Shown: positions 5,324-42,779 of the stretch, piece after piece
How the letters are laid out: the number at the start of each line of letters is the position of its first letter
Position numbering within the stretch: the stretch's first letter is position 1
Virus record (IMG/VR): IMGVR_UViG_3300045988_136686
Location: 1 to 64,000 of that record
Source: a virus
DNA length: 64,000 bases
Reading direction: 5' to 3' (one strand)
Position numbers and translations under genes: made by a program
The notes under the pieces: generated by a model
What the model saw: the letters and a program-made list of their open reading frames with translations, nothing else
What the model was told of the DNA's origin: nothing
The model's database searches: none

Positions 5324-6835
5324 TCATAAAAAGTCTTTTAGTAATTCTTCGTCACTAATAAAATCATAGTCAAATGGATAAAATGTATTAGCAAGTGCAT
5401 CCATATAGTCTGGCGAACGTTTGATACGTTTCTTGATTTCTTCTTTCGGTTCAATTATAATCCGTCCATCGCTTTGGAACTTCCAGTGTGTTTCGGTTGC
5501 TTCCTCCATGAGTTTGTCACAAGGGGGAATAGCCGCCCCAAAACCGTTCTTAGGGTTAAGCCAATCACGTAAAGACCAATAGCAGTAAGCTCGCATATTG
5601 GCAAATTCATATTGTCCGGTAAGGTCATGCAAGCCTTTTGCACTCTCGGAATACTTACAAGAATAAACATTCCTATATCCGAGTTCTTCCAATCGGGAAT
5701 ATACTCCAGCTCCTTCACCTATTGTATCGATGTACGCTTTGGATTTTTTGTCAGAAAGATATATGATGTGCATTCCTGCGACATGCATGTGGTCCGCTTT
5801 TCCAGCAGATTGGTGAACTTCAAATTTAGGGACATAGTTTCCGTATCGAGGGCAAAGTACACTTTCATCTCGACCCATACCAGCAACATCAGAACCAATC
5901 TTACATGATTTAGACGGTGTAAAACCTTCTTCTTGTAAACGATTCCAATTATCATTTGCAATCTCTATCCATTCATACGGAATAAGTACATCTTCGGAGA
6001 CTTTTGGAAACATACCAAGTACCTTGACACGAAAAAGGTCATTAGGTCGGTATAGACCATCTTCCCACTTAAAATCACCTTCTCCTTCATTAAAATCTGC
6101 CTTCTGAATGGGAGAACACCAATTTATCACTTTATCTTTTACCCATTCATAATCTACTTGACCGGGAATGACTAATTTCCTTTTGACTACATTCTCTGCA
6201 TTGAGTGAGTTTAACCGGAATTTCGCAAATCGATTGGATTTCATGGCTCGTGCGGCATAACCCGTAGTTATGTTAGGATTAAACACGATGAGTAAACGGG
6301 AATTTCCCTGTAAGTTACCTTCAATAGCATTATATGTTGCTTCTGAAATACCCGATGCTTCAGTAACGACGAACATTGTATTCACAGCGTGGAACCCAGA
6401 CCATGCTTCAGTATTGTCATCACCAGCCTTAAACCCCGTCAGGAACCATTCTTCATAATTAGTCCTTATTCCGGCAGATAGAAGTCGACCGGGTAAAAAT
6501 TCTGCATTTCTAAATAGTCGTGAGATTTCAGGCATCATGATGTTATATACCTGCCTTGCTGTTGGTGCAGTCATGGCAATTTTTGTATTCTTGGATAATT
6601 TGCCATCTTTCCAACGTGGAGTGAGGTACATAAAACACATAGCAGCACATGCTGCAACGAAGTCCTTACCACGAGCTGTACCTGATGCAACAGCTGTCAT
6701 AGGATTGTGCTGGACAGAGGATATGATAGATTGCTGCTCGCTGTCTAAACGAACCTTCAAAACATCACGGCAAAACCTATTCCAGTCTTCTATCCATGAC
6801 TTTAAGTAGCGTATGTCCTTGCGTACATGGCTCAT
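5324..6835 (-). CDS. terL: terminase large subunit
   Basis: 503 aa with a Walker-A-like ASGTARGKDF near the N-terminus. ATGA overlap with the upstream small-terminase-like gene. Typical size. Confidence 0.8.
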   Translation of the reverse strand: MSHVRKDIRYLKSWIEDWNRFCRDVLKVRLDSEQQSIISSVQHNPMTAVASGTARGKDFVAACAAMCFMYLTPRWKDGKLSKNTKIAMTAPTARQVYNIMMPEISRLFRNAEFLPGRLLSAGIRTNYEEWFLTGFKAGDDNTEAWSGFHAVNTMFVVTEASGISEATYNAIEGNLQGNSRLLIVFNPNITTGYAARAMKSNRFAKFRLNSLNAENVVKRKLVIPGQVDYEWVKDKVINWCSPIQKADFNEGEGDFKWEDGLYRPNDLFRVKVLGMFPKVSEDVLIPYEWIEIANDNWNRLQEEGFTPSKSCKIGSDVAGMGRDESVLCPRYGNYVPKFEVHQSAGKADHMHVAGMHIIYLSDKKSKAYIDTIGEGAGVYSRLEELGYRNVYSCKYSESAKGLHDLTGQYEFANMRAYCYWSLRDWLNPKNGFGAAIPPCDKLMEEATETHWKFQSDGRIIIEPKEEIKKRIKRSPDYMDALANTFYPFDYDFISDEELLKDFL

Positions 6836-7182
6836 TCCTCATCATCAGGCAATTCTTGCATCAGTTTCTCAAATGGATTGACATTCACGTTTTGCTCAAC
6901 GCTTTCCACATAGCCACGTTTTTTGCCTTTTGTCTTGAGATGGAATATGATGGCTGTAAGGTTGCCTGCGTTAATCTGTTCAAGCAATTTGCTTTCAGAA
7001 AAATCGATTAAACTCTCATCAACATCTGACAGTAGTTGATTCAATTTAGGGTACTTTTTACGCCATGCGGTAAATGTATTTCGGTCTATGCCGAGAGAAG
7101 TACACGTAGATGATATATTACCAGCTTTCTTAGTATAAACCTCAGCGACCTTTTCATACGGGATTTTCTTGTATCGTGCCAT
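6832..7182 (-). CDS. terS: terminase small subunit candidate (HTH)
   Basis: 116 aa with an N-terminal HTH-like ISSTCTSLGIDRNTFTAWRKKY. Overlaps the terL start. Confidence 0.55.
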   Translation of the reverse strand: MARYKKIPYEKVAEVYTKKAGNISSTCTSLGIDRNTFTAWRKKYPKLNQLLSDVDESLIDFSESKLLEQINAGNLTAIIFHLKTKGKKRGYVESVEQNVNVNPFEKLMQELPDDEE

Positions 7183-7236: not shown

Positions 7237-8091
7237 TTAGAACGCACTGTTTACGACCATTCGTATAAAATCATTGTACTCTATGCCATGCTCTTTCATG
7301 CACTTAGCCATATATCCATTGGGAGAAAGTCCGGGAATCATATTAATATCTATCACATATGGTACTTGGTTGGACATTCTGAAATCTATCCTAAGGTAAT
7401 GTTTAGCACCTACCGCTTCAAACACTTTCTTCGCAATTCTGTCAAGTAATTCATCTTTGCAGGCAGATGCACTGAAGCTGTAATTTCGCTTTGTTTCATC
7501 CGTTTGTATGCCATCCGTGTTATTGGCATTCGTAAAAGCAGAGTATGTCTTTAAAGAGCTATCTTTCTTTGAGTATATTACAGAAGTGGTTATATCACTC
7601 CCGTCAATGTAACGTTCTATCATCGGTTCTATGCCTTGTTTGTGAAGAAATAGACATTTATTTATGACCTGCGACTTAGTAAAGCATATACTGTTTGAAT
7701 CTATTCCGACGCTATTCTCGCCAAACTTTGGTTTAACGAAATATGCGAAACCTCTTTCCACATCATTGGGACCAACTGTCAGAGGAAACGGAATGCCACA
7801 TTTGTACAATTCGGATTTAACAGCTTCCTTATCATGAGTAAGATAGTTAGTCTGCGAAGATTCAAGCGTGGACGCAAATCCGATTCTTTCCTGAGCTTTT
7901 CTAACATGTTGATTGATGTTCTCGTCTCTTGCCCGAATAAAAGCAATATCCTCTTTCGTGAGAAAAGAGAAATCATCATCCTTATCCGCACAAAATATGT
8001 CTATTTTACCATCGGCAAAGGCTTTCTTATAATACTTATACGTGGGAAAGCTGCCGTCTTCCTCTTTACGATTCGCTATTACCCAAATCAT
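7237..8091 (-). CDS. ATP-grasp ligase, D-Ala-D-Ala-ligase-like
   Basis: Blocks FAYFVKPKFGENSVGID, ERYIDGSDITTSV and HYLRIDFRMSNQVPYVIDINMIPGL match the Ddl-type ATP-grasp pattern. Overlaps the upstream ParB-like gene by 26 nt. Confidence 0.65.
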   Translation of the reverse strand: MIWVIANRKEEDGSFPTYKYYKKAFADGKIDIFCADKDDDFSFLTKEDIAFIRARDENINQHVRKAQERIGFASTLESSQTNYLTHDKEAVKSELYKCGIPFPLTVGPNDVERGFAYFVKPKFGENSVGIDSNSICFTKSQVINKCLFLHKQGIEPMIERYIDGSDITTSVIYSKKDSSLKTYSAFTNANNTDGIQTDETKRNYSFSASACKDELLDRIAKKVFEAVGAKHYLRIDFRMSNQVPYVIDINMIPGLSPNGYMAKCMKEHGIEYNDFIRMVVNSAF

Positions 8092-8788
8092 TGTCTTTCT
8101 GTATTTCGGTTAAACGTTCCTTTGCTAGATCAAGCAGCTTAGAAAAGCATATTGCAGGAGACTTGATGTTGAATTGGTCTCCTATTTCTTTCTGCAACTT
8201 AAGCAGCATCTCCTCATTAGGTTCATGGTCTGCAATCAATACGATGTCGCTTTTCTTCGCCTGCTCCCTTATGTCCCCAAACAGACTGTCTAGTGCATCA
8301 AACGAGTTTGGGTAAAGGATAATGGAGAAAGTGAAAGTCTCCTTCATCACGGATATATCTATACCGTTCGTATCAACCGGTGTAATTTCGTCAATGTTGA
8401 TGTGGGCGAACTTCTTGAACTCGATGGTCTGAATTTGTTCAAATAATTTCTTCAAGATATTCCTGTTATCTTCTCCATGTAAGGAGTTATGGGAAAGCTG
8501 GATTGCTATAATCTCATCTTTCGTAAGCTCATCTTCATCGCAATAAAGAATGCCTATCTTGGAGTAACGCAGTTTCTTACAAGCCCTCAATCTGTGATGC
8601 CCGCTTATCATCACAAATCTTCCGTCTTGTTTTTTGTAACAACACGGGACGCTACTCAATCCGGATTTGCCAATATTATCGCATAGGGCGGCAAAATCCT
8701 CTCCAGTCATTTCGTTGGCGTTCATTTCCGCCTCATCTATAAGGCTGATGGCCACCTGATCGTATTTCCATCTATTTTCGTTGCCCAT
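8066..8788 (-). CDS. ParB/sulfiredoxin-fold protein
   Basis: RFVMISGHHRLRACKKL (GxxR/HHR box of the ParB N-terminal domain). Overlaps both neighbours. Confidence 0.6.
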   Translation of the reverse strand: MGNENRWKYDQVAISLIDEAEMNANEMTGEDFAALCDNIGKSGLSSVPCCYKKQDGRFVMISGHHRLRACKKLRYSKIGILYCDEDELTKDEIIAIQLSHNSLHGEDNRNILKKLFEQIQTIEFKKFAHINIDEITPVDTNGIDISVMKETFTFSIILYPNSFDALDSLFGDIREQAKKSDIVLIADHEPNEEMLLKLQKEIGDQFNIKSPAICFSKLLDLAKERLTEIQKDNDLGNSES

Positions 8789-10850
8789 TTTCTAATAGCT
8801 TATGGTATTTTTCTATTACTTCCTTATAGCTTGAATACACACCAAGTTGCCCGCTATAAGCAAGATATGATGATGTGCAATGCTCTTTCACTTTTGTATA
8901 AACACCCCGATATTTCATACTTACCGGTTTGTGGGTATAAGCACAGCTGATAACCTTCTCCACTAACTTGTGCATAGAGCGGCTCAATATTCTTTGTACT
9001 TCTTTTGTTTGTATGCAGTACAAAATAAACTTACTAAGTTTAGGAATTGCATTATTCGTGCAAAAATCAGTAAGTTGAAACAGATCATACCCATTGTGTT
9101 GTGGTAACGTGAATCCAAAACCACCCAGCGTGTACTTGCCGTACATGACTACAAAAGGATATGTGGATGAACTTACAGAATCCACTTTCTTGACATACTT
9201 CTTCTGCAATCCTTTCAAGTAACCCGGTTTTACCTTCAATATCCTTAGAGCATCCGGGTTATCTATACCCAAATCATCAGGCGGAACTATCTCATCAACG
9301 GTATCAATACTGGATGAGTATGAAGTGTTTGACTGACTGTTTATGCAAGGTTTGTTGCAATAAAGATAACGACCAGCCGACCACCTTTCGCCTCCTGAAG
9401 AATTGAAGATAGCAACTTTGTGCATATTACTAAGGTATGGACTATTGCTGATGAAGTAAAACCAAGTGTCTTTTGGCAACCTTTCCACCAATTCGTAATA
9501 GTCATTCCTTATAACGGGAATGTCCGATTCCATATCACTGTTTTCCCGTATCAGCTTGAACGCCCTCTTTAAGAACTTATCCTTACCATAGTTAAAATAG
9601 ATGACTTTCTTTCCATCAATTGCTTCTTGAAGAGAGCCTCGATGGTATTCACAGGTAGTAAGCAGCGACATAAGCCTCTCACTTGACTTCTCCGTGTATT
9701 CAATGGACTCTTTTGCCTTATACTTTATCGCATCGAGAATAGCATCGTTCCTTGCAGACTGGCTCATACAGAACTTCTGCAAGCCATTTGCATACAGAGC
9801 CAACGCAAGCTGCCTTGATGGTGTCTTGTTGTTGAACTGCTCCAGCCATTCCAGACTGTTGTTATACGTCAGCGACATTTTTCCATTGGATAGCAAATAC
9901 AGCAAATGGCAATATGGGTCTTGACTAAAAATAGACACATCCATTTTATCCATGAAAAACAACTCATAGTTATATAAAAAGCTGTTTACTATGCATACCT
10001 CTTTGTGCCCATGTTCTTTCATTGCCTCATATAGAGCCGAAGCCTGTTTGGAATTGAATGCTATCGGTCTTGTTTGAAACGTTTCTATAGCATTGTATGG
10101 GTTGCCTTGATAGAGTAGCGGAATAAGCTCCTTAGGTGTTTCGTATTTCAGTCCGGTAACTTTTTTGAACTCCTCATAGGTATGTAGTAATTGAAAGTCA
10201 TTCAACGTATGATTTATGGCATAATAAAACATTCTATACGTAGAGTAAACGCAATTCATCGCCATATAAAAATCTGTTGTAGCATGATAGGTGCGAAACT
10301 CTATAGTCTTAGTCTTAAAATATGATGATATGTTAATTGCGTGACGGATAAAACCTTTCTTTGAATTGTTAGTAAATAATTCTCTTATGTCGTCAAATGT
10401 TTTGGATTGCAAAACACCATTATAATATTTTTCAGTAGGAATCGGCATGAGATTGAAAACCATTTCGTCCCATTCTGAGATATTCGCATACTTTTTGATG
10501 AACGGATAGCATACATAAAAGAAAAGAAAGATATTTTTTAATTGCTCCACCGACAAATCCCCAGCATAGATATGGACATGTGTATAGACGCTCCATTTGA
10601 TTACACCTCCTGCATTTACCATAGATTCATATACACTTTTCAATTCGTGCAAATCTTTCAAGCAAAGTCTTAGCGGTGGAGTATTAATTTCGCCACCAAA
10701 TCTCTTATTACACGTCCCGTCTGTGTTAACAATATCCTCATCCTTACTCCATGAATATCCTGTTGGCAATGACACTTTACTACGGTCAAGATTACACATC
10801 TCAATCTCGACACCAAATGTACGTGTTTTTATGTCTGTGCTAATATCCAT
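8772..10850 (-). CDS. carboxylate-amine ligase (Amidoligase_2 / glutamine-synthetase-like) fused to a ~440-aa unassigned C-terminal region
   Basis: N-terminal blocks RTFGVEIEMC, FGGEINTPPL, SVYTHVHIYAG and KTIEFRTYHATTD. Residues ~250-692 have no motif I can name. Confidence 0.55.
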   Translation of the reverse strand: MDISTDIKTRTFGVEIEMCNLDRSKVSLPTGYSWSKDEDIVNTDGTCNKRFGGEINTPPLRLCLKDLHELKSVYESMVNAGGVIKWSVYTHVHIYAGDLSVEQLKNIFLFFYVCYPFIKKYANISEWDEMVFNLMPIPTEKYYNGVLQSKTFDDIRELFTNNSKKGFIRHAINISSYFKTKTIEFRTYHATTDFYMAMNCVYSTYRMFYYAINHTLNDFQLLHTYEEFKKVTGLKYETPKELIPLLYQGNPYNAIETFQTRPIAFNSKQASALYEAMKEHGHKEVCIVNSFLYNYELFFMDKMDVSIFSQDPYCHLLYLLSNGKMSLTYNNSLEWLEQFNNKTPSRQLALALYANGLQKFCMSQSARNDAILDAIKYKAKESIEYTEKSSERLMSLLTTCEYHRGSLQEAIDGKKVIYFNYGKDKFLKRAFKLIRENSDMESDIPVIRNDYYELVERLPKDTWFYFISNSPYLSNMHKVAIFNSSGGERWSAGRYLYCNKPCINSQSNTSYSSSIDTVDEIVPPDDLGIDNPDALRILKVKPGYLKGLQKKYVKKVDSVSSSTYPFVVMYGKYTLGGFGFTLPQHNGYDLFQLTDFCTNNAIPKLSKFILYCIQTKEVQRILSRSMHKLVEKVISCAYTHKPVSMKYRGVYTKVKEHCTSSYLAYSGQLGVYSSYKEVIEKYHKLLENGQRK

Positions 10851-11979
10851 ATCTTGTTTCGCAAAGTTCTTCTATATACTTTTCGCAACCTAATCTCTGG
10901 ATAGTTCTTCCGTTTTCTCTAAAATCTTCTCCTAAAGCTACACTTGAAATATTGATGAGAGATGTTGTAATGGGAACGTCTACGCCTATTCTTTTGGCAA
11001 TGCTTTCCAACAGGATAAGACCTTGTGAAACATCTTCCGTGATGTATCTTGAACGCACTGAAGTAGGACTTATCGCCCTATCTTTGGATTCAGAGTATTC
11101 GTAAAAACTCTTTATAGGGTCACCGAGAAAACCTCCTGCGACAAAAATATCGATAGGATTACAACCTAATCGTTCTAAAACCTTGCGTTTCTCTTTATCC
11201 AAATCCAGCATAACCTTAAAGGTCGCATCATTACCACGGGCGTATGCTTCCCTATACATACAGAAGTTTCCCTTGCTGTATTCTATTCTTGGAATGCTCA
11301 TTATGGATCCAACGGTATGCAAAACCATATTAGGGTTGAGTAATGCGGATTCCAATACTGAGTATTCGTTGCTGAAACCTTTATATAGTTGACGGATTCT
11401 ATCCATACACTCCCCTGCTATTTCTTTTTGGAAGATAGACAATGGGCTTCTTGTAAGCCTGCACCCAACCCGGAATACGACTTCTCCGGGGACATCATCT
11501 TCTTCTATTCGTCCTTCAAGATATGGGCCAGCAGTTTCCACTATGACTGGCATTGAAGAACAGTGCTTTTTGAAGTAGAAAGATGACATATAACTGCAAA
11601 TGCAAATTACAATCTGGCTCCCGTTGAGAAACTTGCTTATTCTCTCGATAAGATTTTCGTGATAGGTACTTTGAATTGTCACAATGACGACATCAGCTTT
11701 TGTTACTTTGCTAATGTCATGAGATACTTCATTGATTACAGCAGTTCTATAACTACAGTTCTCTTTCAGCAATACACGGTTATTGTTCTGACGGATTTTG
11801 TAAAAAACTGATTCTTTCGAGTGGGAGGTTTTAATCAAAGAAACGTCGTGTCCGCCAATAGATAAATCTGCTGCTATGGCTACACCTACATTACCACACC
11901 CTAACACTGTAATTTTGATAGGATCATTAGAGTTCTCTTGTCCTTGATTTAAAGGATTTGTTATCGTTTTTTCGTCCAT
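10840..11979 (-). CDS. NAD(P)-dependent opine (octopine/nopaline) dehydrogenase-like protein
   Basis: Rossmann KITVLGCGNVGVAIAADLS, then ALLNPNMVLHTVGSIMSIPRIE and RYITEDVSQGLILLESIAKRIGVDVPIT, typical of the opine dehydrogenase C-terminal domain. Confidence 0.6.
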   Translation of the reverse strand: MDEKTITNPLNQGQENSNDPIKITVLGCGNVGVAIAADLSIGGHDVSLIKTSHSKESVFYKIRQNNNRVLLKENCSYRTAVINEVSHDISKVTKADVVIVTIQSTYHENLIERISKFLNGSQIVICICSYMSSFYFKKHCSSMPVIVETAGPYLEGRIEEDDVPGEVVFRVGCRLTRSPLSIFQKEIAGECMDRIRQLYKGFSNEYSVLESALLNPNMVLHTVGSIMSIPRIEYSKGNFCMYREAYARGNDATFKVMLDLDKEKRKVLERLGCNPIDIFVAGGFLGDPIKSFYEYSESKDRAISPTSVRSRYITEDVSQGLILLESIAKRIGVDVPITTSLINISSVALGEDFRENGRTIQRLGCEKYIEELCETRYGY

Positions 11980-12200
11980 ATATTTAAGTTGTATATAACT
12001 TCATATACATTTTGTGCTAAGTCTGCCAAGCGTATTCCCGACAGGACTAAACACAAATCCATCATTTTTCAAGCTACTTGCAAGAACACTTATGCAATTC
12101 TTCGGCTTCTTTCAGTCGTGTCAGATAGCAATTACTATCACCCCGTAAACTGCACAAGCTTTAATGTTCTTGCTTTTGCTTATCGCTACTATAAGGGTTG

Positions 12201-12270
12201 AGCGGAAACAGGGAATCGAACCCCACTCTTTGGCTGGAATGCCAACGCTCTGCCGATGAGCTATTTCCGC
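12201..12270 (-). tRNA. tRNA-Gly(UCC)-like, with an apparent 6-nt anticodon loop
   Basis: Hand fold: GCGGAAA-TA-GCTC-ATCGGCA-GAGC-G-TTGGC-ATTCCA-GCCAA-AGAG-TGGGG-TTCGATT-CCCTG-TTTCCGC-T. U73 discriminator and the GCGG acceptor fit Gly. The loop is one nt short of canonical. Confidence 0.6.
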
Positions 12271-12348
12271 AATATGGGCAGCCTGCAAACCGTTTATCAG
12301 AATTTTCACTGCCCTTCTTTGTACTTTGGTCGTTATTTCTTATCTCTG

Positions 12349-12421
12349 AGGTTGAAGTGGGATTCAAACCCACGAATAACGGTTTTGCAGACCGTTGCGT
12401 TAATCACTTCGCCATTCAACC
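12349..12421 (-). tRNA. tRNA-Cys(GCA)
   Basis: Hand fold, 73 nt: GGTTGAA-TG-GCGAAGTGATTAACGC-A-ACGGT-CTGCAAA-ACCGT-TATTC-GTGGG-TTTGAAT-CCCAC-TTCAACC-T. U73 as expected for Cys. Confidence 0.85.
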
Positions 12422-12501: not shown

Positions 12502-12906
12502 TCAAAACAAACTCGCTTGTTCATAATTGGGCTCTTTCTTCTCAACAACTCCAAATTCTGTGATTTCAATACCAGTATTTTCTGTGATCCATTTTGCCAA
12601 AATATGGCGATGGCAGAAATCACCCGGTTTTTCGTAGCAACAAAGAGCAACGTCTTTTCCTCCGCTTAACATTTCAATTTGTTTCACGACTTGGTTCGCA
12701 TCTTGGCTTGCCAATATTCTGTCGTAAAGCTTAAGATACTCTTCTCGAGAACAAGGTCCACTTACCATATAGCGGGTGGGACAAACATTCAACATTTGCG
12801 GAATACCAGCTATAAATCTGGGTTTTCCGATTGCTACGCAAATCATATTAACTCCCGCCTCTTTCAGTTTTCGACTATTACCGAAATACGATGTAAAAAT
12901 CTTCAT
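12502..12906 (-). CDS. DUF488-like protein
   Basis: MKIFTSYFGN start and CCYEKPGDFCHRHILAKW block resemble the DUF488 family. Confidence 0.45.
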   Translation of the reverse strand: MKIFTSYFGNSRKLKEAGVNMICVAIGKPRFIAGIPQMLNVCPTRYMVSGPCSREEYLKLYDRILASQDANQVVKQIEMLSGGKDVALCCYEKPGDFCHRHILAKWITENTGIEITEFGVVEKKEPNYEQASLF

Positions 12907-17837: not shown

Positions 17838-18172
17838 TATTTATCGTCTTTCCTGAATGGATTGAAATCCGGGTCTTCATCTTCATAAATAATGCCGTCA
17901 AGGTACATATTGGTATTGGCTTCATCTTGCCAACGCTCAAACACGGCACGGTCGGCCTCGTCCCAGCCGGTGCGTTCTTCGAGTGTCATAGTAGCACGCT
18001 GGGCTTCGATATGCTTGATTACTTCTTTTTCTTGTTTCCTTTCCTCATCAATCTCTTTAATTACTTCCTCGATAGAAGAATAACAGGATTTGGCATAGCA
18101 GCATTCTGTACCGCCATAGATAAAAGTAACGGTTTTTTCCGTTTCGCCGATTATTTTATATTTCTTCTTCAT
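17837..18172 (-). CDS. hypothetical acidic protein, candidate immunity partner of the MuF-ART domain
   Basis: 111 aa, start overlaps the MuF stop (ATGA). The immunity role is a positional inference only. Confidence 0.4.
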   Translation of the reverse strand: MKKKYKIIGETEKTVTFIYGGTECCYAKSCYSSIEEVIKEIDEERKQEKEVIKHIEAQRATMTLEERTGWDEADRAVFERWQDEANTNMYLDGIIYEDEDPDFNPFRKDDK

Positions 18173-20850
18173 TGCTCTACAAGTATTATTCTATAAGTGC
18201 CATCTCCTTCTATCCTACGTTTCTTAACCAAGAACTTAGTTCCTTTGTCAAACAGAATTTCATGTTGATTTTCAAGTGTAAATATACCATTAAATTCTGA
18301 TATTTTGCTGATATTGCGTCCGTTTTTGCTTTGTATCTCAAAGATTACACGCTTGTGACTCTTGGGTATTCCGGCATGTGATATGAACTTCATAGGTGTA
18401 TCCATGTAAAGGCTGGACGAAATGAAACCCTTATCGGACACTACATCGCCGATATGGTCAAGGAACCGTTCTTGAAGTTTCTTTATGCTCATGGTCTCTC
18501 CACGATAAACAACACCTTCATATTTGGGGAGCCTTGATAAGGCTTGACTTATCAGACGGCTTGCCACGTCCACATATTCATCTTCCGTTCCATTGCGTAA
18601 ACGGCGGTTAATTTCACGACTAGTAGCCCTCTTGTTGCCAGAGGAGATGGCTTGGGTATAGGCATTGACCGCAGCTTGCTGCACTTCGGGAATATGCGGA
18701 TAGATCTTGTTGTAATACTCTACACGGCTCATAGCAAGATTTGTCCTGCGCTTTCGAACAAAGGTTTTCTCTGTCTTGTTATAAACATTTACCTTAAAGT
18801 CCTCACGAATATATTTATCATTATCACGAATAAAATAAGGTGCGCTGTCCCAACTCTTTGCTCGCTGTATATTTTCGGTTATCCACTTTTTGAAAGCGTC
18901 CGGTACGTCTTTAACTTCGTTCACGCTTGCTGTCGTGGCTTCACTCCGACCGTCCCATTCCCAAAATTCTTCTTCGGTTTTTAGAATGGGTATCTTGTAA
19001 CATCGACAATTGCTACCCCAAAAGCATTTTCCGTTCCTGCGGATATACATGATATGGTTGCGTTCCAGTGTCAAATCATAAACAAGACCATCATAATGCT
19101 GTATCTCTTTATTGAATACCGAAGACGTGACAGAATAGCATTCACGTATAGAGTAACAATCATAGTTTGACTTTATAATTGGACCATTCGCTTTGTGTGA
19201 TACTCCTGCTTTATTTATAGAAAAAGAAGGCCTATGTCCTGATTTCAGTATTAGTTCGGATAAGTCTCCTGCCATGCGTTCAGATGTGGTGAAGTATATG
19301 ATTTCATCTTTATCTGACTTGAATTCATTACCGTGATTCCCTATGAATGATCTGCAAGGACGCTTATAACCGTCGCAAAGGACAAAGGCATCAAGAAAAA
19401 TCCTTATCTGCCTCTTTGAAGCATTCTTTATAACATACGGGACAAATTTGTTTATACACCGTCCAAAAATCTTCAAATAGTTGCGTATGGTAGTGTTATA
19501 AAATACGACCTTTTGTTTTTCAAGATGTGGTTCAAATCCCATACGCTTGATACAATCAACTATTTTATCTCTTGCCGTTTCTCCCTCTTGCTGGGATATT
19601 ACGACGCCCGAATTGCTCATTGTACTACCGTCAGAAAGCCAATACCCCATAAATTCGCAGAACAAATCAAATTGGATTATCAAATCATCAATTTGGTAAA
19701 ATTCGACATCGCCTGATTCATACTCGCAACCTCTATAAAATCTGCCTTTACCTTTCGTGTATTCTTTCGCTTGGCAATTCTTAATTTTTCCGTCATTCTT
19801 ATTCAAATACACCATATTGTGTTCTGGGGTTACGAGACAATCAAGAGAGCGATTGTAGAAATGTATCATTTCTCCATAATATGAGAAACATTGTCTATCG
19901 ATAAATTCAACCCATTCTATATTACGTGTATTTGGATTTAACGATAATATCAAATCATCATCTAAAACGTCTTTGAATAACTTCCAACCTCTATTCGTCA
20001 GAACTTCGCTATCATCTGAATAACAAAGGGGATGCCAACCGGTCCATTGGAAGTCTTTCGGGTACTTCCCAGCTAGTATATCGCAAATGTCTTGGAAAGG
20101 CTTTCCGTTGCAAGTATGGTTGTTGCTCAACTTGATTTCATATCCCACCACGAAGTCCATCTGCTGCCAGCGTAGGTTTTCAGCTTGACGGTATGCCATA
20201 TTGATTTCGGAAGCAGCCAAACGGATAGAACGATACTCGCAATCCATTGCCCGTGATGCTTTTCCGAACCTTTCCTTGTAATCTTTTTGTAGTTGCGGGA
20301 AATCGAGCAGATATTTGGAGATTTGCTTGCTTAATGTAATTGCACTCGTACCTTTTTGAATGGCACATGATATGGCTTCTTCAAGTTCCTGTTTATACAG
20401 AGTCGATTGATTCCACAACTTATCTGATATGGTAAATCCTTTATCCTTACGTCGCTGAAACGCTTTCAATGCATCATTATTGGGCTGGTATAGGATTTCG
20501 TATTTCTCCTTTCCTATGGTTGCGCCATAAGTTTGCAATACTTTGTTGGCAAGAAGATCTTGAACTTCGTTGCTGTTTTTCCATTCTTCAGAAGTTCCAC
20601 TATATATTACAGATCCGATGTCCTCAACGAACCGTTCTTGTAAGTCTCTTATCCGTTTCCTTGTTTGGGGATAATCCGACCACATAAACGTCCTATCACT
20701 ATCAATGGTAAAATCGGTAATTCCGACTATTTTAGCCGCCTCTAAATTCAAATCCTCGTATATGGATTCCACAAGCATGACGTACTTGGCGAGCCGTTTA
20801 TTCAGCTCGCCGTACTTGCGTTTCTGATTTGGAGTTTTTGGCTTTGCCAT
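18169..20850 (-). CDS. MuF/SPP1 gp7-like head morphogenesis protein, interrupted by an intein and ending in an ADP-ribosyltransferase domain
   Basis: The GWHPL...CRCYKIP extein junction rebuilds the MuF HPxCRC motif. The C-terminus carries an R-S-E type ART triad: VVYRGE (R783), FISSSLY (S811-813), ENQHEILF (Q862-x-E864). Confidence 0.8.
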   Translation of the reverse strand: MAKPKTPNQKRKYGELNKRLAKYVMLVESIYEDLNLEAAKIVGITDFTIDSDRTFMWSDYPQTRKRIRDLQERFVEDIGSVIYSGTSEEWKNSNEVQDLLANKVLQTYGATIGKEKYEILYQPNNDALKAFQRRKDKGFTISDKLWNQSTLYKQELEEAISCAIQKGTSAITLSKQISKYLLDFPQLQKDYKERFGKASRAMDCEYRSIRLAASEINMAYRQAENLRWQQMDFVVGYEIKLSNNHTCNGKPFQDICDILAGKYPKDFQWTGWHPLCYSDDSEVLTNRGWKLFKDVLDDDLILSLNPNTRNIEWVEFIDRQCFSYYGEMIHFYNRSLDCLVTPEHNMVYLNKNDGKIKNCQAKEYTKGKGRFYRGCEYESGDVEFYQIDDLIIQFDLFCEFMGYWLSDGSTMSNSGVVISQQEGETARDKIVDCIKRMGFEPHLEKQKVVFYNTTIRNYLKIFGRCINKFVPYVIKNASKRQIRIFLDAFVLCDGYKRPCRSFIGNHGNEFKSDKDEIIYFTTSERMAGDLSELILKSGHRPSFSINKAGVSHKANGPIIKSNYDCYSIRECYSVTSSVFNKEIQHYDGLVYDLTLERNHIMYIRRNGKCFWGSNCRCYKIPILKTEEEFWEWDGRSEATTASVNEVKDVPDAFKKWITENIQRAKSWDSAPYFIRDNDKYIREDFKVNVYNKTEKTFVRKRRTNLAMSRVEYYNKIYPHIPEVQQAAVNAYTQAISSGNKRATSREINRRLRNGTEDEYVDVASRLISQALSRLPKYEGVVYRGETMSIKKLQERFLDHIGDVVSDKGFISSSLYMDTPMKFISHAGIPKSHKRVIFEIQSKNGRNISKISEFNGIFTLENQHEILFDKGTKFLVKKRRIEGDGTYRIILVEQ
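19009..20025 (-). mobile_element. intein (339 aa) with LAGLIDADG homing-endonuclease domain
   Basis: Starts at Cys276 (CYSDDSEVLT). Block B is LVTPEHNM. LAGLIDADG motifs are FCEFMGYWLSDGS and IFLDAFVLCDGY. Ends at ...CFWGSN614 followed by Cys615. Length is a multiple of 3 (1017 nt). Confidence 0.8.
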
Positions 20851-22476: not shown

Positions 22477-23877
22477 TTATTCCGGTTCTTCGAATATATT
22501 GCTTATCCTGCTTCTGGAAGCATCTGCATCTTCTTTTTGGATTTGGGCAAGAGTTTCTTGTGGATCAGTAGAGATACCTAAGTTCTTGATGGCCTCTAAT
22601 TGGCTGACAACTGCTTTTCCACCACTTGCTGTAACCCATTTTTCTATTTCTGACTTTTCATCATTTTGGATAAACGGAGTTATGATGTGCTCAACCTCAA
22701 CATTATCTACTTCATTTTTCCAAGAAACATTCATCATTTTTAGAAAGGCTTTGATTACGCTACATTCACGTTCAAATGCTTCTATCCATGCACCACTTTC
22801 ATCTCCAACCTTTAAATGAGCGTCAGTAAGTAAAGTCTGCCTTGCATCAAATCCGATATTGCCAAGAGACTTCATGTTTTCGAAGGAAATATCCGGCATT
22901 TGTGATTGTGACCAGAACAACTCAACAAGGGTATCGACATGATATTTTAATGCCTCGATAGATTGTGCCCATGAAACATAGGACACGTCCCCGTTTTGTT
23001 CTACTCGGTAAACTCTACGGCTTTCTCCTTTATCTTCTCCTCCTTTTATGCCACCTGCTATTTTTAGGATAGGAGCGGAGTTATATGCTATGACATCGCT
23101 ATTGCGTGAGAGGGTATATTCGATTTCTTTTCTGATATAGGAAAGACCGTGATAAATGGGAACAGGACGATAAACGTATACTCCAGGTATTTTCAGAATA
23201 ACGACCGGTTCTGATTTTACTAATTCCCAGCCGTTTCCCTGTTGTTTCCATTTATAATGAATGTTTGCCGTGTATGTCTCGAAATAGGTAACTTCTTCAT
23301 TTTTGGCCTTTTTTGTGTATTCAAAAGACATTGCGATCATATCGCCAAGCTCATCAAGTAGAGGGTATAAGCTAACACCGTCCATTGGTGAGTAGGTTTT
23401 GCATTTTAGCTTATATTTACTTTTAAAGCCGTATAGAGTGTTGGGATTCTCAACTGTGTACCAAATGGTGAACACTTCGCATGAAGCAAAGTAAGCATTG
23501 CCTCGCTTAATATTCTCACTGTAAATACGGGCATACTTATATATCGCTTCAATCGCTTTCGCAATACTTTGGCGGGTTTCATTGTCTTCTATATTGTGAT
23601 ATACACGTTTAACCGGGATAGCGAACATGAATTCAGTCATTCGCTTGGTGAGGAGTTTTTCAAGTCCGATGTAGATACGGGAAGCTTTTTCTGTATCTCC
23701 ATTAGAGCGGATCTTATCTTTACGGGTAACTGTGTCAGATACTATATCATGTTCTGTTGGTTCGTAGTCTTTGAGAAGTTTATCCCATGAGGGGACTGTT
23801 ACAGACTTTTCTTTCAAATCGTTGATTATGTTATCAACGGGCCGCGTACTGTCTAAGATAGAGGTGATTTCGTCCAT
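22477..23877 (-). CDS. portal protein candidate (SPP1 gp6-like)
   Basis: 466 aa, first gene of an operon that also contains MuF. Assigned by size and synteny. Confidence 0.65.
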   Translation of the reverse strand: MDEITSILDSTRPVDNIINDLKEKSVTVPSWDKLLKDYEPTEHDIVSDTVTRKDKIRSNGDTEKASRIYIGLEKLLTKRMTEFMFAIPVKRVYHNIEDNETRQSIAKAIEAIYKYARIYSENIKRGNAYFASCEVFTIWYTVENPNTLYGFKSKYKLKCKTYSPMDGVSLYPLLDELGDMIAMSFEYTKKAKNEEVTYFETYTANIHYKWKQQGNGWELVKSEPVVILKIPGVYVYRPVPIYHGLSYIRKEIEYTLSRNSDVIAYNSAPILKIAGGIKGGEDKGESRRVYRVEQNGDVSYVSWAQSIEALKYHVDTLVELFWSQSQMPDISFENMKSLGNIGFDARQTLLTDAHLKVGDESGAWIEAFERECSVIKAFLKMMNVSWKNEVDNVEVEHIITPFIQNDEKSEIEKWVTASGGKAVVSQLEAIKNLGISTDPQETLAQIQKEDADASRSRISNIFEEPE

Positions 23878-28729: not shown

Positions 28730-29485
28730 TTATTGAAATAAACTGACTTGTATTCTTTTCAAGACCTTTTCATTTGCGTCGTTATAGAACTGTTTGTTGA
28801 CCTCGAAGCCATATGCCTTTCTTCCCAATGAGGCTGCCGCATACAGGGTTGTGCCGCTTCCTGCGCACGGGTCGATGACAACATCGCCCTTGTCCGTGAA
28901 TATCTCTATCAACCGTTTGAGGAGCGGGACAGGTTTCTGGCAAGGGTGGCATTTGGGCGTGGTGTTGTCCCTCACCCAGTCGAAGCAGTTGAAAATCATT
29001 CTCCCGTTGTTGTTGAATTTGGGCAACTTGTCCCGATAAAGGATAAGACCGTATTCGCAGTTGCCGACGACCTTCATGTTTGCTTTCAACACTTGCGCAG
29101 AGAAGTCCTTGCGGAAAACCAGCGGTATGTAGTGATTTAACCCGTATTTGCGGCCTAACTCTATGAATTTGAACTGCTGTTCGTACTCGCAGAACAGTAT
29201 CATGCAGGGGGATTTGCCGGCTTCTTTCGGCTCTTTCACGAGCATTTTTGAACAGAAGTGCATGAACTCGGCCGGACGAAACTCGCTGTCGGACGAGAAG
29301 AATTGTTTGCCTGCCAATGCGCTCTCGCCGTTCTTGTTGTCTCCGTCGATATACCATGCGGGGTTGCTGGCGTAGGCGTTATTCGCCAAATTATACGGCA
29401 CATCTGCTATAATCAGCTGCGCTTTTGGCAGACCATAGACTTTATAATTCTGGAATGAGTCGTTGTAAAGCTCTATGTCTTTCAT
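28730..29485 (-). CDS. DNA N6-adenine / N4-cytosine methyltransferase (beta class)
   Basis: Motif IV IIADVPYNL comes before motif I VVIDPCAGSGTT. The gene is visibly GC-richer than its flanks. Confidence 0.85.
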   Translation of the reverse strand: MKDIELYNDSFQNYKVYGLPKAQLIIADVPYNLANNAYASNPAWYIDGDNKNGESALAGKQFFSSDSEFRPAEFMHFCSKMLVKEPKEAGKSPCMILFCEYEQQFKFIELGRKYGLNHYIPLVFRKDFSAQVLKANMKVVGNCEYGLILYRDKLPKFNNNGRMIFNCFDWVRDNTTPKCHPCQKPVPLLKRLIEIFTDKGDVVIDPCAGSGTTLYAAASLGRKAYGFEVNKQFYNDANEKVLKRIQVSLFQ

Positions 29486-33127: not shown

Positions 33128-33739
33128 TCATTTGTTTATTTTAGATTCAACGACTTTGTATTTAATGGGCAATCCGGAGCAGGTGATGGCGAGCAGGGCA
33201 GAGTCCCTTTCTTCTTGGTTGCTGCGGGGGCTGTTAAACTCTATCCCGCTCATCTGGCACAACCGCTTCAATTCTTCATGGGTGATCTTGCCGTCTTTCC
33301 CTTGCCAGCACTTGCGCAATGGGGATTGCTCCATGACTTGTATTCCGTAATGCCTCAGCATTTCGACTATCTTGCGACCGGTCTCTTGGTTACGACCTAC
33401 ATGCTCGCCTTTCTTGGCTGCGCTCGCCCGTGTGTCTTTCGGTGACAAATGCCAGTTGGATTTGTTTTTCCAACCTGCCTCGACATATACCGCCACTCGT
33501 TCATCGTTTTTATTGCAGTGCTCATGAAGTTTTTTTATGCCCTCTACCAACAAGGGGAATGGGCAAACACTCATCTCCATTTTCATTTTCCTTGTGTCCA
33601 ATACGGAGTAGCCGCTACGCTCCACGTCGGGGTCTATCCCTATCAATACATCGTATTTGAGTTTTCTGTTGTATGTGGCCTGTTCTTCCATTATATTTTG
33701 TCTTTTTATCAGAAAAGTTTCTTTTGTATAGATTCGCAT
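33128..33739 (-). CDS. RuvC-like Holliday-junction resolvase candidate
   Basis: VLIGIDPDVERSGYSVLD resembles the RuvC/RNase-H-fold first acidic motif. Weak. Confidence 0.35.
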   Translation of the reverse strand: MRIYTKETFLIKRQNIMEEQATYNRKLKYDVLIGIDPDVERSGYSVLDTRKMKMEMSVCPFPLLVEGIKKLHEHCNKNDERVAVYVEAGWKNKSNWHLSPKDTRASAAKKGEHVGRNQETGRKIVEMLRHYGIQVMEQSPLRKCWQGKDGKITHEELKRLCQMSGIEFNSPRSNQEERDSALLAITCSGLPIKYKVVESKINK

Positions 33740-34839
33740 GATTTGTCCGTGAACAGTTTTCGGAATATGTGGAAAAGGACATCTACGACGATACTGTTAC
33801 CTGCCATCACATATTGCCTGCTGTCGCTTATTCCCGCATTTTGAATCTTGTTTATATCCGATTCGCTGACACCCATTAACCGGAAACATTCTCTCGGTGT
33901 CAGCCTTCTTATCTTTTCCAGACACAGAAAGTTATTTTCCTGCCACGAGTTGCTTGTTATCGCAGGGCATATCGTGTATGTCCCTCCTTTGTTGAATCCT
34001 CTGCTGCGTTGTATTATCTCGGGTTCCGAATATTCCCCCACGATTATCGAATTGTCGGTCGGACTTAATGCTCCGTTAGCTCTCAGACAATTGGCTGTGC
34101 CATCACTTGTTTTAGGCAACCATAAAAAGCCTGTTCCTTTTTTTACGTGAGCGATGTTGTGTCTTATGAAACCTTTTATCATTTTCTCGCTCAAAAAATA
34201 CTTTTCGTCCACGTCGCATTCGAGAATGTCCCTCAATCTCTTTTCAATGGGTAAGGGTTCCGGGAAATAATACGATTCCGAGTCTCGTATCGAAATCATG
34301 AATACTCTTTCCCTGTTATGGGGAATGCCGTAGTCTTTCGCATTCAGAACCTTCGTATGGTTCGTGTACCCTAATTGGGAAAGGTATTGTTCCCATGCCG
34401 ATAAAAAACACTTGTATTTCCTTCCGGTAAGGGACTTTACATTTTCCATGAGCAGGTATTTCGGCATCTTGGTCTCTATCGCTTTCTCGCATTCCCATAA
34501 CAGGCTGCTGCGTGTCCCGCTGCCTTTCTCCAATCCCGCCTGCTTTCCGGCCGTTGAAATGTCCGTGCAGGGGAAAGAATATGTGAACAGGTCGAAGTCG
34601 GGAACTTTTGCCCAGTCTATATGGCATATATCCCCGAAGTTCCTGTCTCGGTATTGAGGATATACGGCATTATGGGCTTGTATGGCGTACTTGTCGATTT
34701 CCGACCAGCCGACCAGATCGTAACCGATTCCGAGCCGGTCGAGTGCCATGCACTGGCTGTCATATCCGCTGAATGCTGTAAAGACTTTTAATTGCATATC
34801 TTTCTCTTTTTGTTCGGCAGGCGGGACTCGAACCCGCAA
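33709..34839 (-). CDS. DNA cytosine-5 methyltransferase (true start probably MQLKVF at 34797)
   Basis: Motif I FTAFSGYDS, motif IV FPCTDIS, motif VI LMENVKSL, then RRLTPRECFRLMG and GNSIVV. Confidence 0.9.
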   Translation of the reverse strand: MRVRVPPAEQKEKDMQLKVFTAFSGYDSQCMALDRLGIGYDLVGWSEIDKYAIQAHNAVYPQYRDRNFGDICHIDWAKVPDFDLFTYSFPCTDISTAGKQAGLEKGSGTRSSLLWECEKAIETKMPKYLLMENVKSLTGRKYKCFLSAWEQYLSQLGYTNHTKVLNAKDYGIPHNRERVFMISIRDSESYYFPEPLPIEKRLRDILECDVDEKYFLSEKMIKGFIRHNIAHVKKGTGFLWLPKTSDGTANCLRANGALSPTDNSIIVGEYSEPEIIQRSRGFNKGGTYTICPAITSNSWQENNFLCLEKIRRLTPRECFRLMGVSESDINKIQNAGISDSRQYVMAGNSIVVDVLFHIFRKLFTDKSCESIQKKLF

Positions 34840-34897
34840 CTGTATATTCGCTCCTTATACTCGACTTATACCGCTCTCCCGTTTGAACCACTGCCGA
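34813..34897 (-). tRNA. 85-nt tRNA-like element with intact acceptor and T arms but no canonical anticodon arm
   Basis: TCGGCAG-TG-GTTC-AAACGGGA-GAGC-G-[GTATAAGTCGAGTATAAGGAGCGAATATACAGTT]-GCGGG-TTCGAGT-CCCGC-CTGCCGA-A. I could not fold the central 34 nt into a 5-bp stem with a 7-nt U33 loop. Confidence 0.4.
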
Positions 34898-35420: not shown

Positions 35421-35963
35421 CTATATTGATTTTAGCATAATGATTCCGATACTATCGCTGTCTTTGCTTTTAACGAGCAAAGATTTATTGCCTTCCGAAA
35501 GCTGCATATATGCGTACTCAAAATTGAATAGAGCTTTTTCGATCTTGGAGAAGAACGAAGGATCTATCCGTAACTTTGTGATTCCTTCTGTGCTCTCTTT
35601 TAGATGTTCTGAAATTACATTCTCCATTTCAGGGTATTTATAGACTTCGGAGAATGGGTATATAAATTTTTGATTGTCACACAATATACATTCAAACCCC
35701 ATGTCCGTAACTTGTACCATATCGTAAGAGAGGATAGACTTGTAGGCTTTTGAGCCTATAAACTTACCATCGAGCTTTTCTATTTCTTCATCGGTGAATG
35801 TGGAACATTCGGATAGATTGTTTTTTACCAAGATATGTGTATCGCATGCATAAGCGCAACCATCTTTAAAATGGATATATGAAAATACAGGTCTGAAATA
35901 GTCGTTTCTGCTGCATGCCAAGTCCATTCTTAGGCATCTGTTGAAATTATGTCTAGTCTTCAT
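35421..35963 (-). CDS. hypothetical protein
   Basis: 180-aa co-directional ORF. No motif. Confidence 0.5.
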   Translation of the reverse strand: MKTRHNFNRCLRMDLACSRNDYFRPVFSYIHFKDGCAYACDTHILVKNNLSECSTFTDEEIEKLDGKFIGSKAYKSILSYDMVQVTDMGFECILCDNQKFIYPFSEVYKYPEMENVISEHLKESTEGITKLRIDPSFFSKIEKALFNFEYAYMQLSEGNKSLLVKSKDSDSIGIIMLKSI

Positions 35964-41545: not shown

Positions 41546-41660
41546 TTTTTAAGTTTTATTGCTTCTAAATATAGCGAATATAACAATGATTCTTTATACT
41601 AAAAACTTAGTTTTACAACATAATTTATAAGCAGATTCATACCTTAAAATATCAAATCCT

Positions 41661-42755: not shown

Positions 42756-42779
42756 TTAATTTATTAAAATTATCAAGTT

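Follow-up and report, generated by a model that had tools for sequence, protein, structure and literature searches.

The DNA analyzed here comprises positions 1 to 64,000 of IMG/VR record IMGVR_UViG_3300045988_136686 (hereafter the window, 64,000 nucleotides), and its subject is a minus-strand gene cluster lying directly upstream of the terminase genes terS and terL. We conclude that this locus, of the "ParB-terminase locus" type, probably encodes a system that hypermodifies DNA bases after replication. A role on DNA was favored because the central enzyme contains a fused Dam-like module, its ParB-fold partner is invariant, the locus is linked to the terminase genes, and the accompanying tRNA genes show a peculiar pattern. 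Across phyla, the constant core appears to comprise a DUF488 protein, a Dam-like–GNAT enzyme with or without a fused amidoligase, and a cognate ParB-fold protein without a helix-turn-helix (HTH) domain, usually with terS/terL adjoining. It is possible, though doubtful in this full form, that phages of several phyla aminoacylate DNA by means of the Dam-derived/GNAT enzyme, a ParB activator, and DUF488, with glycine taken from a dedicated, translation-incompetent tRNA-Gly encoded in the operon, and that in Bacteroidales phages the adduct is elaborated by the fused amidoligase and swappable enzymes into peptide- or opine-like bases.

The window represents a temperate siphovirus-like phage or prophage of gut Bacteroidales; it carries genes for an integrase, a tape-measure protein, a portal, a YqaJ recombinase, and two DNA methyltransferases, and the names of close homologs pointed to Bacteroidales and Caudoviricetes. 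In an earlier reading of the sequence alone (the original prediction), the locus had been described as a four-gene amidoligase cassette between two phage tRNAs and terS/terL. The four minus-strand open reading frames (ORFs) were indeed found at 10840..11979 (379 aa), 8772..10850 (692 aa), 8066..8788 (240 aa), and 7237..8091 (284 aa), with junctions overlapping by 11, 17, and 26 nt. All of the motifs quoted for them, GCGNVG, NPNMVLH, YITEDV, FGVEIEM, GGEINTPPL, THVHIY, TIEFRTY, and GHHR, occurred in the translations, and the flanking tRNA genes (12200-12270 and 12348-12421), terS (6832..7182), and terL (5324..6835) were recovered as well. The features of the locus, all on the minus strand, are as follows.

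12502..12906 (-): DUF488 (DUF488-N3a) protein, 134 aa; Pfam 5.3e-9, PHROG 2450 1.5e-34
12348..12421 (-): tRNA-Cys(GCA) gene; ARAGORN, Rfam tRNA 66 bits
12200..12270 (-): tRNA-Gly(UCC)-like gene; Rfam tRNA 50.5 bits against a gathering score of 29, 6-nt anticodon loop AUUCCA
10840..11979 (-): opine dehydrogenase (OpDH), 379 aa; Octopine_DH PF02317, 97.7 bits against a cut-off of 30, E 8.7e-28, residues 207-348
10161..10850 (-): Amidoligase_2 domain, glutamine-synthetase-like COOH-NH2 ligase, residues 1-230 of the 692-aa fusion; Pfam 3.8e-17
9291..10136 (-): Dam-like module, fusion residues ~239-520; Pfam DAM-like-phage2 2.1e-87
8799..9251 (-): GNAT-fold domain, fusion residues 534-684; Pfam GNAT-phage-like 1.1e-37
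8066..8788 (-): ParB/sulfiredoxin (Srx)-fold protein, 240 aa, constant partner of the enzyme; PHROG 7405 5e-69
7237..8091 (-): ATP-grasp ligase, 284 aa; Dala_Dala_lig_C 52.1 bits against 24 (7.9e-14), ATP-grasp_3 24.4 against 23.2
6832..7182 (-) and 5324..6835 (-): terS and terL, constant downstream neighbors that set the packaging context; PHROG 309 and PHROG 2

A constant core beside the terminase genes

Relatives of the fusion protein were searched for exhaustively among 1.84 billion representatives. The three-domain architecture was kept down to 25% identity, and a larger population of ~430-435-aa proteins matched the C-terminal part of the fusion only. This short form consisted of DAM-like-phage1 and GNAT-phage-like and was homologous from end to end with fusion residues ~280-690 (hhalign probability 100%, E 3e-44). 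The long form amounted to at least 778 protein clusters and the ParB partner to at least 1,972. We then inspected about 180 loci, drawn from IMG/VR, from GTDB genomes, and from phages in culture, and in every one of them the enzyme, long or short, adjoined the same ParB-fold family. The pairing was seen in Bacteroidota, Desulfovibrionaceae, Planctomycetota, Chloroflexota, Bacillota, Mesorhizobium, a Methanobacterium, and Gordonia and Mycobacterium phages; cultured phages of the last two genera, such as Argie, Taptic, Jeon, Clawz, and others, carried the minimal core. In some SEA-PHAGES records, the short form is annotated as "DNA methyltransferase."

In Bacteroidota phages, the gene order was fixed as DUF488, slot 1, fusion, ParB, slot 2, terS, and terL, and all Bacteroidota loci had the ParB gene beside the terminase together with a linked, putatively nucleic-acid-modifying enzyme in a phage or prophage. 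Chance is far from sufficient to explain this arrangement: its gene order came back in over 100 independent loci of metagenomic or genomic origin. The neighborhood analysis did not bear out the four genes as a unit: the constant set was DUF488, fusion, and ParB, with OpDH and ATP-grasp being variable, and the four-gene cassette appears to be one lineage-specific configuration of a modular system. It is worth noting that terL remained 66-74% identical where the fusion fell to 24-37% and that accessory genes were swapped, so the modification genes appear to evolve much faster than the packaging genes. From the cassette to terL, no terminator-like site was found; the earliest convincing site came after terL, at 5246-5223. 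Against 50,697 cultured-phage records, megablast of the region gave no match, and tblastn of the fusion matched only through its GNAT part, in Gordonia phage Clawz.

A passively carried host metabolic operon was ruled out, because every genomic occurrence showed the same prophage context beside terS/terL. Searches of defense and toxin libraries including PADLOC gave no defense-system match for the cassette enzymes, and a known defense system was rejected on the basis of the PADLOC result.

The fusion protein contains a Dam-like module and a GNAT-fold domain

The amidoligase call on the 692-aa protein held, with Amidoligase_2 (PF12224) scoring 63.4 bits against a gathering score of 22. Residues E15, E17, H93, R169, E184, and R186 were invariant among 22 diverse homologs down to 21% identity, and the whole fusion matched PHROG 2443 "amidoligase" at 2.4e-181. 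The ~440 aa that the original prediction had left unassigned could be assigned to DAM-like-phage2 and GNAT-phage-like, Pfam domains that are curated yet functionally uncharacterized; PF22555, PF22556, and PF22559 are the catalog entries for the domains of the system. NCBIfam held no model for the fusion.

The fold of residues 228-692 was modeled by AlphaFold2 from an alignment of 17 sequences down to 20% identity, with a mean pLDDT of 84. In Foldseek searches of PDB, the best match of the GNAT domain was Mom of phage Mu (8bv8_B, E 5e-4, rank 1; chain A, rank 8), and the middle domain matched E. coli Dam (4rtq/4rtj/2g1p, 3e-3 to 8e-3) over ~280 columns. Among viral models (BFVD), the matches included a full-length "amidoligase" homolog (7e-26), adenine methyltransferases, Mom of Salmonella phage FSL SP-031, and endonuclease-annotated proteins of PA5oct and Campylobacter phages. 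P-V-S-M-K-Y-R-G and one Asp were the GNAT invariants across long and short forms; S644, K646, R648, and D595 of the fusion are among the invariant residues. The fusion sequence matched nothing meaningful among PDB sequences, and GNAT-phage-like was the only GNAT-type Pfam family matched. Because the sequence searches of PDB with the fusion and with the GNAT profile were empty, no Mom family membership is claimed; the modeled domain seems related to Mom by fold and not by family, and it should not be filed as a Mom member, yet it may work alike.

The two forms differed in their methyltransferase motifs. The short form kept motif I (G-C-S-G-N-F) and the acidic residue of motif II (N-D-V), and its motif IV read xPP(T/F)(Y/F), without the catalytic D/N. 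As aligned by hhalign with DAM-like-phage1 of the short form, the long form had "VNPxxY" in place of motif I and no counterpart of motif IV; hence the fusion showed neither the FxGxG-like motif I nor the (D/N)PP(Y/F) motif IV of Dam-type N6-adenine methyltransferases. The long form has lost motifs I and IV entirely and gained an N-terminal amidoligase. As a speculation, the Dam-like pocket of the short form (L114, L133, L157, L162, L180, and others) might still accommodate a ligand with an adenosyl group, which could even be the aminoacyl-adenosine terminus of a charged tRNA.

We propose that the Dam-like module may serve as a DNA-binding or base-presenting scaffold and the GNAT domain as an acyl or aminoacyl transferase. 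The original prediction had cast the ParB fold as the "DNA handle"; the DNA-acting catalytic core is likely to be the Dam-like/GNAT module instead.

The ParB-fold partner and DUF488

The ParB/Srx call was sustained, even though the ParB_N match of the window protein was below threshold (14.3 bits against a 26.3 cut-off; 0.044): its homologs carry precomputed PF02195, PHROG ParB families were matched at 5e-12, and the AlphaFold2 model (pLDDT 80) matched CTPgammaS-bound ParB (7bnr, 3.6e-6) as well as KorB, Noc, and Srx in Foldseek. The fold was accompanied by the GxxR (box II) nucleotide-binding motif, to which R66 belongs, and NA..M, SG(H/N)HR, and QxSHN were invariant in the family. The protein is laid out as a predicted nucleoside triphosphate (NTP)-binding N-domain, a disordered linker, and a C-terminal alpha/beta domain. 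No PDB match was obtained for the C-terminal domain and no HTH family was detected, the structural matches covering only ~115-138 N-terminal columns, and the locus contained no ParA gene. A partition ParB was ruled out on two grounds, namely the failure to detect an HTH parS-binding domain and the lack of a ParA gene in the locus.

In nearly all loci of Bacteroidota, the DUF488 gene preceded the fusion; in Desulfovibrionaceae and other phyla it was located close to the short form, and in phages Argie and Clawz it lay 1.1-1.4 kb upstream. Most of the loci inspected had a DUF488 gene in the vicinity. As a separate observation, the DUF488 domain at 12502-12906 (-) matched the C-terminal part of the PADLOC candidate defense protein PDC-M19A (1.2e-7), so this domain is also used in candidate host defense systems.

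A tRNA-Gly-type gene in the upstream slot

One of the tRNA genes that the original prediction had treated as mere flanks belongs to a tRNA-Gly family traveling with the enzyme. The gene at 12200-12270 was homologous to the tRNA-Gly genes that related loci carry at this position. ARAGORN reported it as a tRNA with a two-base anticodon, the Rfam alignment lacked one anticodon-loop base, and the transcript was predicted to fold as a cloverleaf with a 6-nt loop and not the canonical 7-nt decoding loop; loci L089, L090, and L014 showed the same anomaly. Glycyl-tRNA synthetase (GlyRS) identity elements are G1-C72, C2-G71, G3-C70, U73, C35, and C36. The window gene starts with GCG, ends with CGC-U, and has CC in its anticodon loop.

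After loci were dereplicated at 90% fusion identity, at least one Gly-type tRNA gene was found just upstream of the enzyme and on the same strand, often as two in tandem, in 21 of the 24 clusters of the window clade, in which 33/43 slot tRNAs were Gly-type. Among the distant long-form lineages, four clusters had a slot tRNA, and it was Gly in 4/4. About half of the Gly-type genes had a noncanonical loop (6 or 8 nt, A33, or anticodon ACC, A34). C35-C36, however, was kept in all of them, the GCG acceptor-stem start in 32/34, and U73 in nearly all. Because the loops are defective yet the GlyRS identity elements are kept, this would be the pattern expected of a tRNA selected for glycylation and not for decoding. 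Furthermore, the sole tRNA gene of Mycobacterium phage Argie (61.5 kb) was a tRNA-Gly(UCC) at a distance of 88 nt upstream from the gene of the short form. The short-form and ParB genes overlap there, and seven related phages had the same tRNA and arrangement. Argie is an independent replicate of the tRNA-Gly linkage. The window tRNA-Gly-like gene is proposed as a dedicated glycyl donor. The neighboring tRNA-Cys(GCA) is probably not part of the system, because non-Gly tRNAs were only sporadic in the slot (10/43).

Variable slots around the core

The OpDH call was confirmed by Octopine_DH and by Rossmann-domain matches: the N-terminal dinucleotide fold carries G-C-G-N-V-G at residues 27-32, and ApbA, NAD_Gly3P_dh_N, and F420_oxidored scored above their cut-offs. 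Over its full length, OpDH matched CENDH (1bg6, 7.9e-16), with H221, R311, and D316 aligned with H202, R292, and D297, which we take to be the catalytic His, Arg, and Asp; these catalytic residues appear to be conserved. OpDH was confined to the clade sharing at least 59% fusion identity with the window, and three clusters of that clade lacked it. The loci L037, L039, and L041 (IMG/VR; fusion ~70% identical), close relatives devoid of OpDH, are natural "knock-outs" for comparative chemistry. They had tandem tRNA-Gly genes ~100-180 nt upstream of the fusion and an ATP-grasp of another type, 32-39% identical.

The 284-aa protein had been called a D-Ala-D-Ala-ligase (Ddl)-type ATP-grasp. The ATP-grasp assignment stood, the designation as a true Ddl did not, and the protein is best described as a putative ATP-grasp ligase of Ddl-like kind. 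Against PDB, it matched Ddl (3r23) at 1e-12 over residues 113-282 only, leaving the N-terminal 110 aa without a match. The ATP-grasp was 30-50% identical between phages whose remaining cassette genes were ~70% identical.

The contents of both slots changed between lineages. Slot 1 held OpDH in the window clade and elsewhere a ~285-aa protein, a small GNAT plus that same protein, or nothing; a further variant combined a small GNAT-like protein with 265-aa and Cys-rich proteins. Slot 2 held an ATP-grasp of at least three divergent types, an AlaDh_PNT_N-type (alanine/saccharopine-dehydrogenase-like) enzyme, or nothing. In a Candidatus Gallipaludibacter prophage, two divergent ATP-grasp genes lay in tandem between ParB and terS (L089:10748-12430), which suggests two successive ligations. 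Opine dehydrogenases condense amino groups, including that of glycine (giving strombine), with pyruvate. In sister phages, the second variable slot is occupied by an enzyme of saccharopine/alanine-dehydrogenase-like type, which suggests amine/2-oxo-acid chemistry as a recurrent theme. We propose that OpDH and ATP-grasp are lineage-specific tailoring or supply enzymes.

The ~265-285-aa protein of slot 1 was seen in L099:7136-8002, L108:7136-7993, L110:7163-8014, L169:6823-7620, L174:7220-8020, and L176:7310-8020. Its invariants were K30, R-E-G, G-G-S, and R-x-G-E-x-x-L-x-G. It had no Pfam, NCBIfam, or PDB match; a non-significant match to an alanine racemase N terminus around the invariant Lys hints at a fold-type III pyridoxal-phosphate enzyme. 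Profile and PDB searches gave no assignment for the Cys-rich 146-aa and small 126-aa accessory proteins.

Relation to known systems

The domains were catalogued already, and the framework of ParB-linked phage DNA modification, tRNA-dependent momylation, and amide-ligase tailoring is known. Our literature search found no paper mentioning these families or their combination, and it found no description of this system, of a dedicated and partly non-decoding tRNA-Gly, of a DUF488 partner, or of swappable OpDH/ATP-grasp/dehydrogenase slots.

Mom uses Gly-tRNA(Gly) as the donor for glycylating adenine N6 in double-stranded DNA, after which the glycyl group rearranges (PMC13219725). The window enzyme shares with Mu Mom (8bv8) the GNAT fold, for which Mom is the best PDB structural match, and a phage-encoded, late or packaging-proximal location, and the tie of the locus to tRNA-Gly parallels the demonstrated donor of Mom. 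However, no sequence relationship was detectable, and Mom is a single stand-alone enzyme, whereas here the GNAT is fused to a Dam-like module (plus an amidoligase in the long form) and is accompanied by ParB and DUF488 partners, its own tRNA-Gly-like gene, and tailoring enzymes.

A phage ParB lacking an HTH has been shown to activate the DNA dioxygenase with which it is paired, and to do so specifically on double-stranded DNA (PMC13229309). For ParB-terminase loci, modification of phage DNA in the course of packaging has been predicted (PMC4738411, citing Iyer et al. 2013). Like the 5mYOX176/ParB176 thymine dioxygenases (PMC13229309) and the ParB-terminase large subunit locus (PMC4738411), the window has an HTH-less ParB beside a base-modifying enzyme and the terminase. 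The enzyme there is an Fe/2-oxoglutarate dioxygenase or a methyltransferase, in contrast to the Dam-like/GNAT and amidoligase domains here, and the present ParB family has its own invariant motifs and a C-terminal domain without a PDB match.

CmoX/CmoY are accompanied by ParB-domain genes, and an ATP-dependent ligase of this pathway amidates a DNA-borne carboxylate with glycine (PMC12783734). Both the CmoA/CmoX/CmoY 5-carboxymethylcytosine-glycine amide pathway (PMC12783734) and the thymidine hypermodification clusters (PMC8989533, PMC5889632) install a base handle, followed by ATP-dependent amino acid ligation; ParB-domain genes are often near, and tailoring genes vary combinatorially in the style of biosynthetic gene clusters. 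Their handles, however, are a Cx-SAM carboxymethyl or a 5-hydroxymethyldeoxyuridine pyrophosphate, their ligases are asparagine-synthetase-like or aGPT-Pplase, and tRNA, GNAT, opine dehydrogenase, and ATP-grasp are not involved.

The tailoring enzymes also have relatives of known type. OpDH resembles opine dehydrogenases (CENDH 1bg6, octopine dehydrogenase 3c7a) in its full-length CENDH alignment with catalytic His/Arg/Asp kept, and ATP-grasp aligns with the C-terminal half of D-Ala-D-Ala ligases; unlike these, the window proteins score far under equivalog cut-offs and are encoded in a phage DNA-modification locus. Fem-type GNAT-fold transferases use aminoacyl-tRNA outside translation, with specialized isoacceptors that are poor in translation. 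The likeness to the present system lies in such use of a specialized tRNA-Gly. The acceptor there is, by contrast, a peptidoglycan precursor, and the specialized tRNAs differ in the T and D arms and not in anticodon-loop length. FemX and idiosyncratic cell-wall tRNAs are cited in PMC13219725.

Proposed mechanism and alternatives

The scheme below is tentative in its glycine, adenine, and tailoring details. A Dam-derived module devoid of methyltransferase motifs would hold DNA and present a base, probably at adenine N6, and the Mom-like GNAT would move glycine from Gly-tRNA(Gly) to this base, most likely to adenine N6. The glycyl donor would be supplied partly by the phage tRNA-Gly-like gene, whose GlyRS identity is kept and whose loop is unfit for decoding; host tRNA-Gly would be available to phages without a nearby tRNA gene. 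The HTH-less ParB may act as an NTP-dependent activator or loader on double-stranded DNA. The fused amidoligase would then make an amide on the new glycyl group, either capturing the free amine before a Mom-type rearrangement or extending a carboxylate. OpDH and ATP-grasp may tailor the DNA-bound adduct by reductive N-carboxyalkylation and amino acid addition; alternatively, they may make a co-substrate, an opine or dipeptide, for the amidoligase to attach. Reductive N-carboxyalkylation taking place on DNA, as in the original prediction, found no specific support in the analysis and is something we infer. The position of the cluster immediately ahead of terS/terL, with both on one strand, would time the modification with packaging. 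The purpose of the modification would be to shield virion DNA from host nucleases, and the rapid, modular exchange of tailoring genes is consistent with an arms race.

Several points weigh against this scheme. The chemistry of every member, and with it the target base, the donor, and the order of the tailoring steps, we infer from sequence, models, and context. The margin of Mom over ordinary N-acetyltransferases in the Foldseek PDB ranking was small, and the family profile of the GNAT domain found nothing among PDB sequences at E<=10, Mom included. The similarity of the middle domain to Dam was modest (TM 0.35-0.42), and motifs I and IV are absent from the long form, so base flipping by the Dam-like module is an assumption. 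DUF488 has no solved PDB relative, and no literature on its function was found. The ATP-grasp protein is not a bona fide Ddl, as its best score was 64.5 bits against an NCBIfam cut-off of 243 and covered residues ~84-283 only. With regard to the tRNA, about 13/17 distant long-form clusters had no tRNA-Gly, most short-form loci and prophages as well as Gordonia phage Clawz had no nearby tRNA, and the slot also received Asn, Met, Ser, Arg, Lys, and Cys tRNAs; part of the tRNA-Gly signal may come from shared ancestry and a general tRNA insertion hotspot. As most short-form and many distant long-form loci lack a tRNA, tRNA genes were rejected as a universal part of the system.

The last of these points bear on an alternative that we consider unlikely, in which the DNA-modifying core is retained, the GNAT donor is acyl-CoA or another non-tRNA compound, and the tRNA-Gly genes are ordinary, marking an insertion slot or supplying codons. 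Besides the many loci without a tRNA and the mixed tRNAs of the slot, it draws on the facts that most GNATs use acyl-CoA and that ordinary N-acetyltransferases scored almost like Mom. The strong over-representation of the Gly type in the slot (33/43, and 4/4 in distant lineages) and its occurrence as the sole tRNA of Argie, 88 nt from the enzyme, argue for a glycyl-tRNA donor instead, and the defective loops and ACC anticodon speak against decoding while C35-C36 is kept. GNATs have as a motif a glycine-rich loop for CoA pyrophosphate. In the GNAT domain here, no such loop followed the strand ending in the invariant Asp.

Somewhat less likely still is the second function offered by the original prediction (its option B), production of either a free small molecule or a tag on a peptide or protein. 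Here the product would be an opine-like or dipeptide metabolite, or else an amino-acid tag attached to a protein of the host or the phage; the ParB/Srx protein would be a kinase-like enzyme, and the substrate acylated by the GNAT would be something other than DNA. Classic small-molecule and peptide enzymes are indeed found in the locus or its relatives (OpDH, ATP-grasp, amidoligase, alanine/saccharopine-dehydrogenase-like enzymes, small GNATs), and Srx, SerK, and SbnI, ParB-fold proteins with non-DNA substrates, were among the fold matches. Phage amidoligases have also been proposed to modify cell-wall receptors (PMC11318856, citing Iyer et al. 2009). Nevertheless, these metabolic enzymes were the variable and not the constant parts of the locus; the constant core was a Dam-derived module fused to a GNAT, with ParB beside the terminase, and for this kind of context an action on DNA has been predicted and, for related systems, demonstrated (PMC4738411, PMC13229309, PMC12783734). 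The defense and toxin libraries, which gave no match, likewise spoke against it. DNA hypermodification, the other function that had been offered (option A), was thus better supported, with its anatomy revised as to the Dam-like/GNAT core, the four-gene unit, and the role of the tRNA.

It is improbable that the GNAT acts, in the manner of TacT or AtaT, on charged tRNA-Gly or on tRNA bases, with the phage tRNA-Gly as target, decoy, or antidote and translation being manipulated: TacT is a GNAT acetylating Gly-tRNA(Gly) (PMC13219725) and the tRNA-Gly linkage is the strongest contextual signal, but this reading accounts neither for the Dam-like module nor for the obligatory partnership with ParB and the linkage to the terminase, the amidoligase and tailoring enzymes would have no obvious role, and the arrangement is late-operon-like without antitoxin-like organization.

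Implications

There is a real chance of new DNA chemistry in this locus. If the aminoacylation scheme is true, tRNA-dependent DNA aminoacylation would grow from a single enzyme, Mu Mom, to a widespread multicomponent family, and a virus would be seen for the first time to carry a tRNA that does not decode but serves DNA chemistry as its dedicated cofactor. Abundant human-gut Bacteroidales phages would then be predicted to contain a new class of DNA bases bearing amino acids, peptides, or opines. Such peptide- and opine-like bases are not yet known from nature, and the locus would be a natural-product-style biosynthetic gene cluster for DNA. The modular tailoring slots would provide a natural experiment on the diversification of hypermodification under restriction pressure and possibly an enzymatic toolbox for DNA functionalization.

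Other observations in the window

Conventional methyltransferases were encoded as well. The C5 cytosine DNA methyltransferase ORF 33709-34839 (-) (PF00145, 1.8e-60) has a TTG start, and its 5' end is overlapped by an 86-nt tRNA-Arg(TCG) called by ARAGORN at 34812-34897 (-); either this tRNA call or the ORF start is doubtful and needs checking. An N6/N4 DNA methyltransferase (PF01555, 1.4e-25) was found at 28730-29485 (-), and a leucine-rich-repeat-variant/HEAT repeat protein (LRV, 1.5e-74) at 35953-36843 (-). Since the PF01555 enzyme is a separate one, the phage has at least two conventional methyltransferases besides the cassette.

Beyond terL, a 436-aa ORF without a Pfam match occupied 1043-2353. 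Downstream of an SPP1-type portal gene (22477-23877, -), an 893-aa protein (18169-20850, -) carried a C-terminal ADP-ribosyltransferase toxin domain (PF03496, 7e-10); the position of these toxin-domain and portal genes upstream of terS/terL is an unusual order. Finally, a low-GC (0.34) island with reversed AT skew lay on the plus strand at 41015-43283 in a genome otherwise coded on the minus strand. It contained an HSDR_N-like protein (type I restriction R N-terminal; 41661-42755), adjoined the integrase at 43408-44730, and looks like a moron or defense island.

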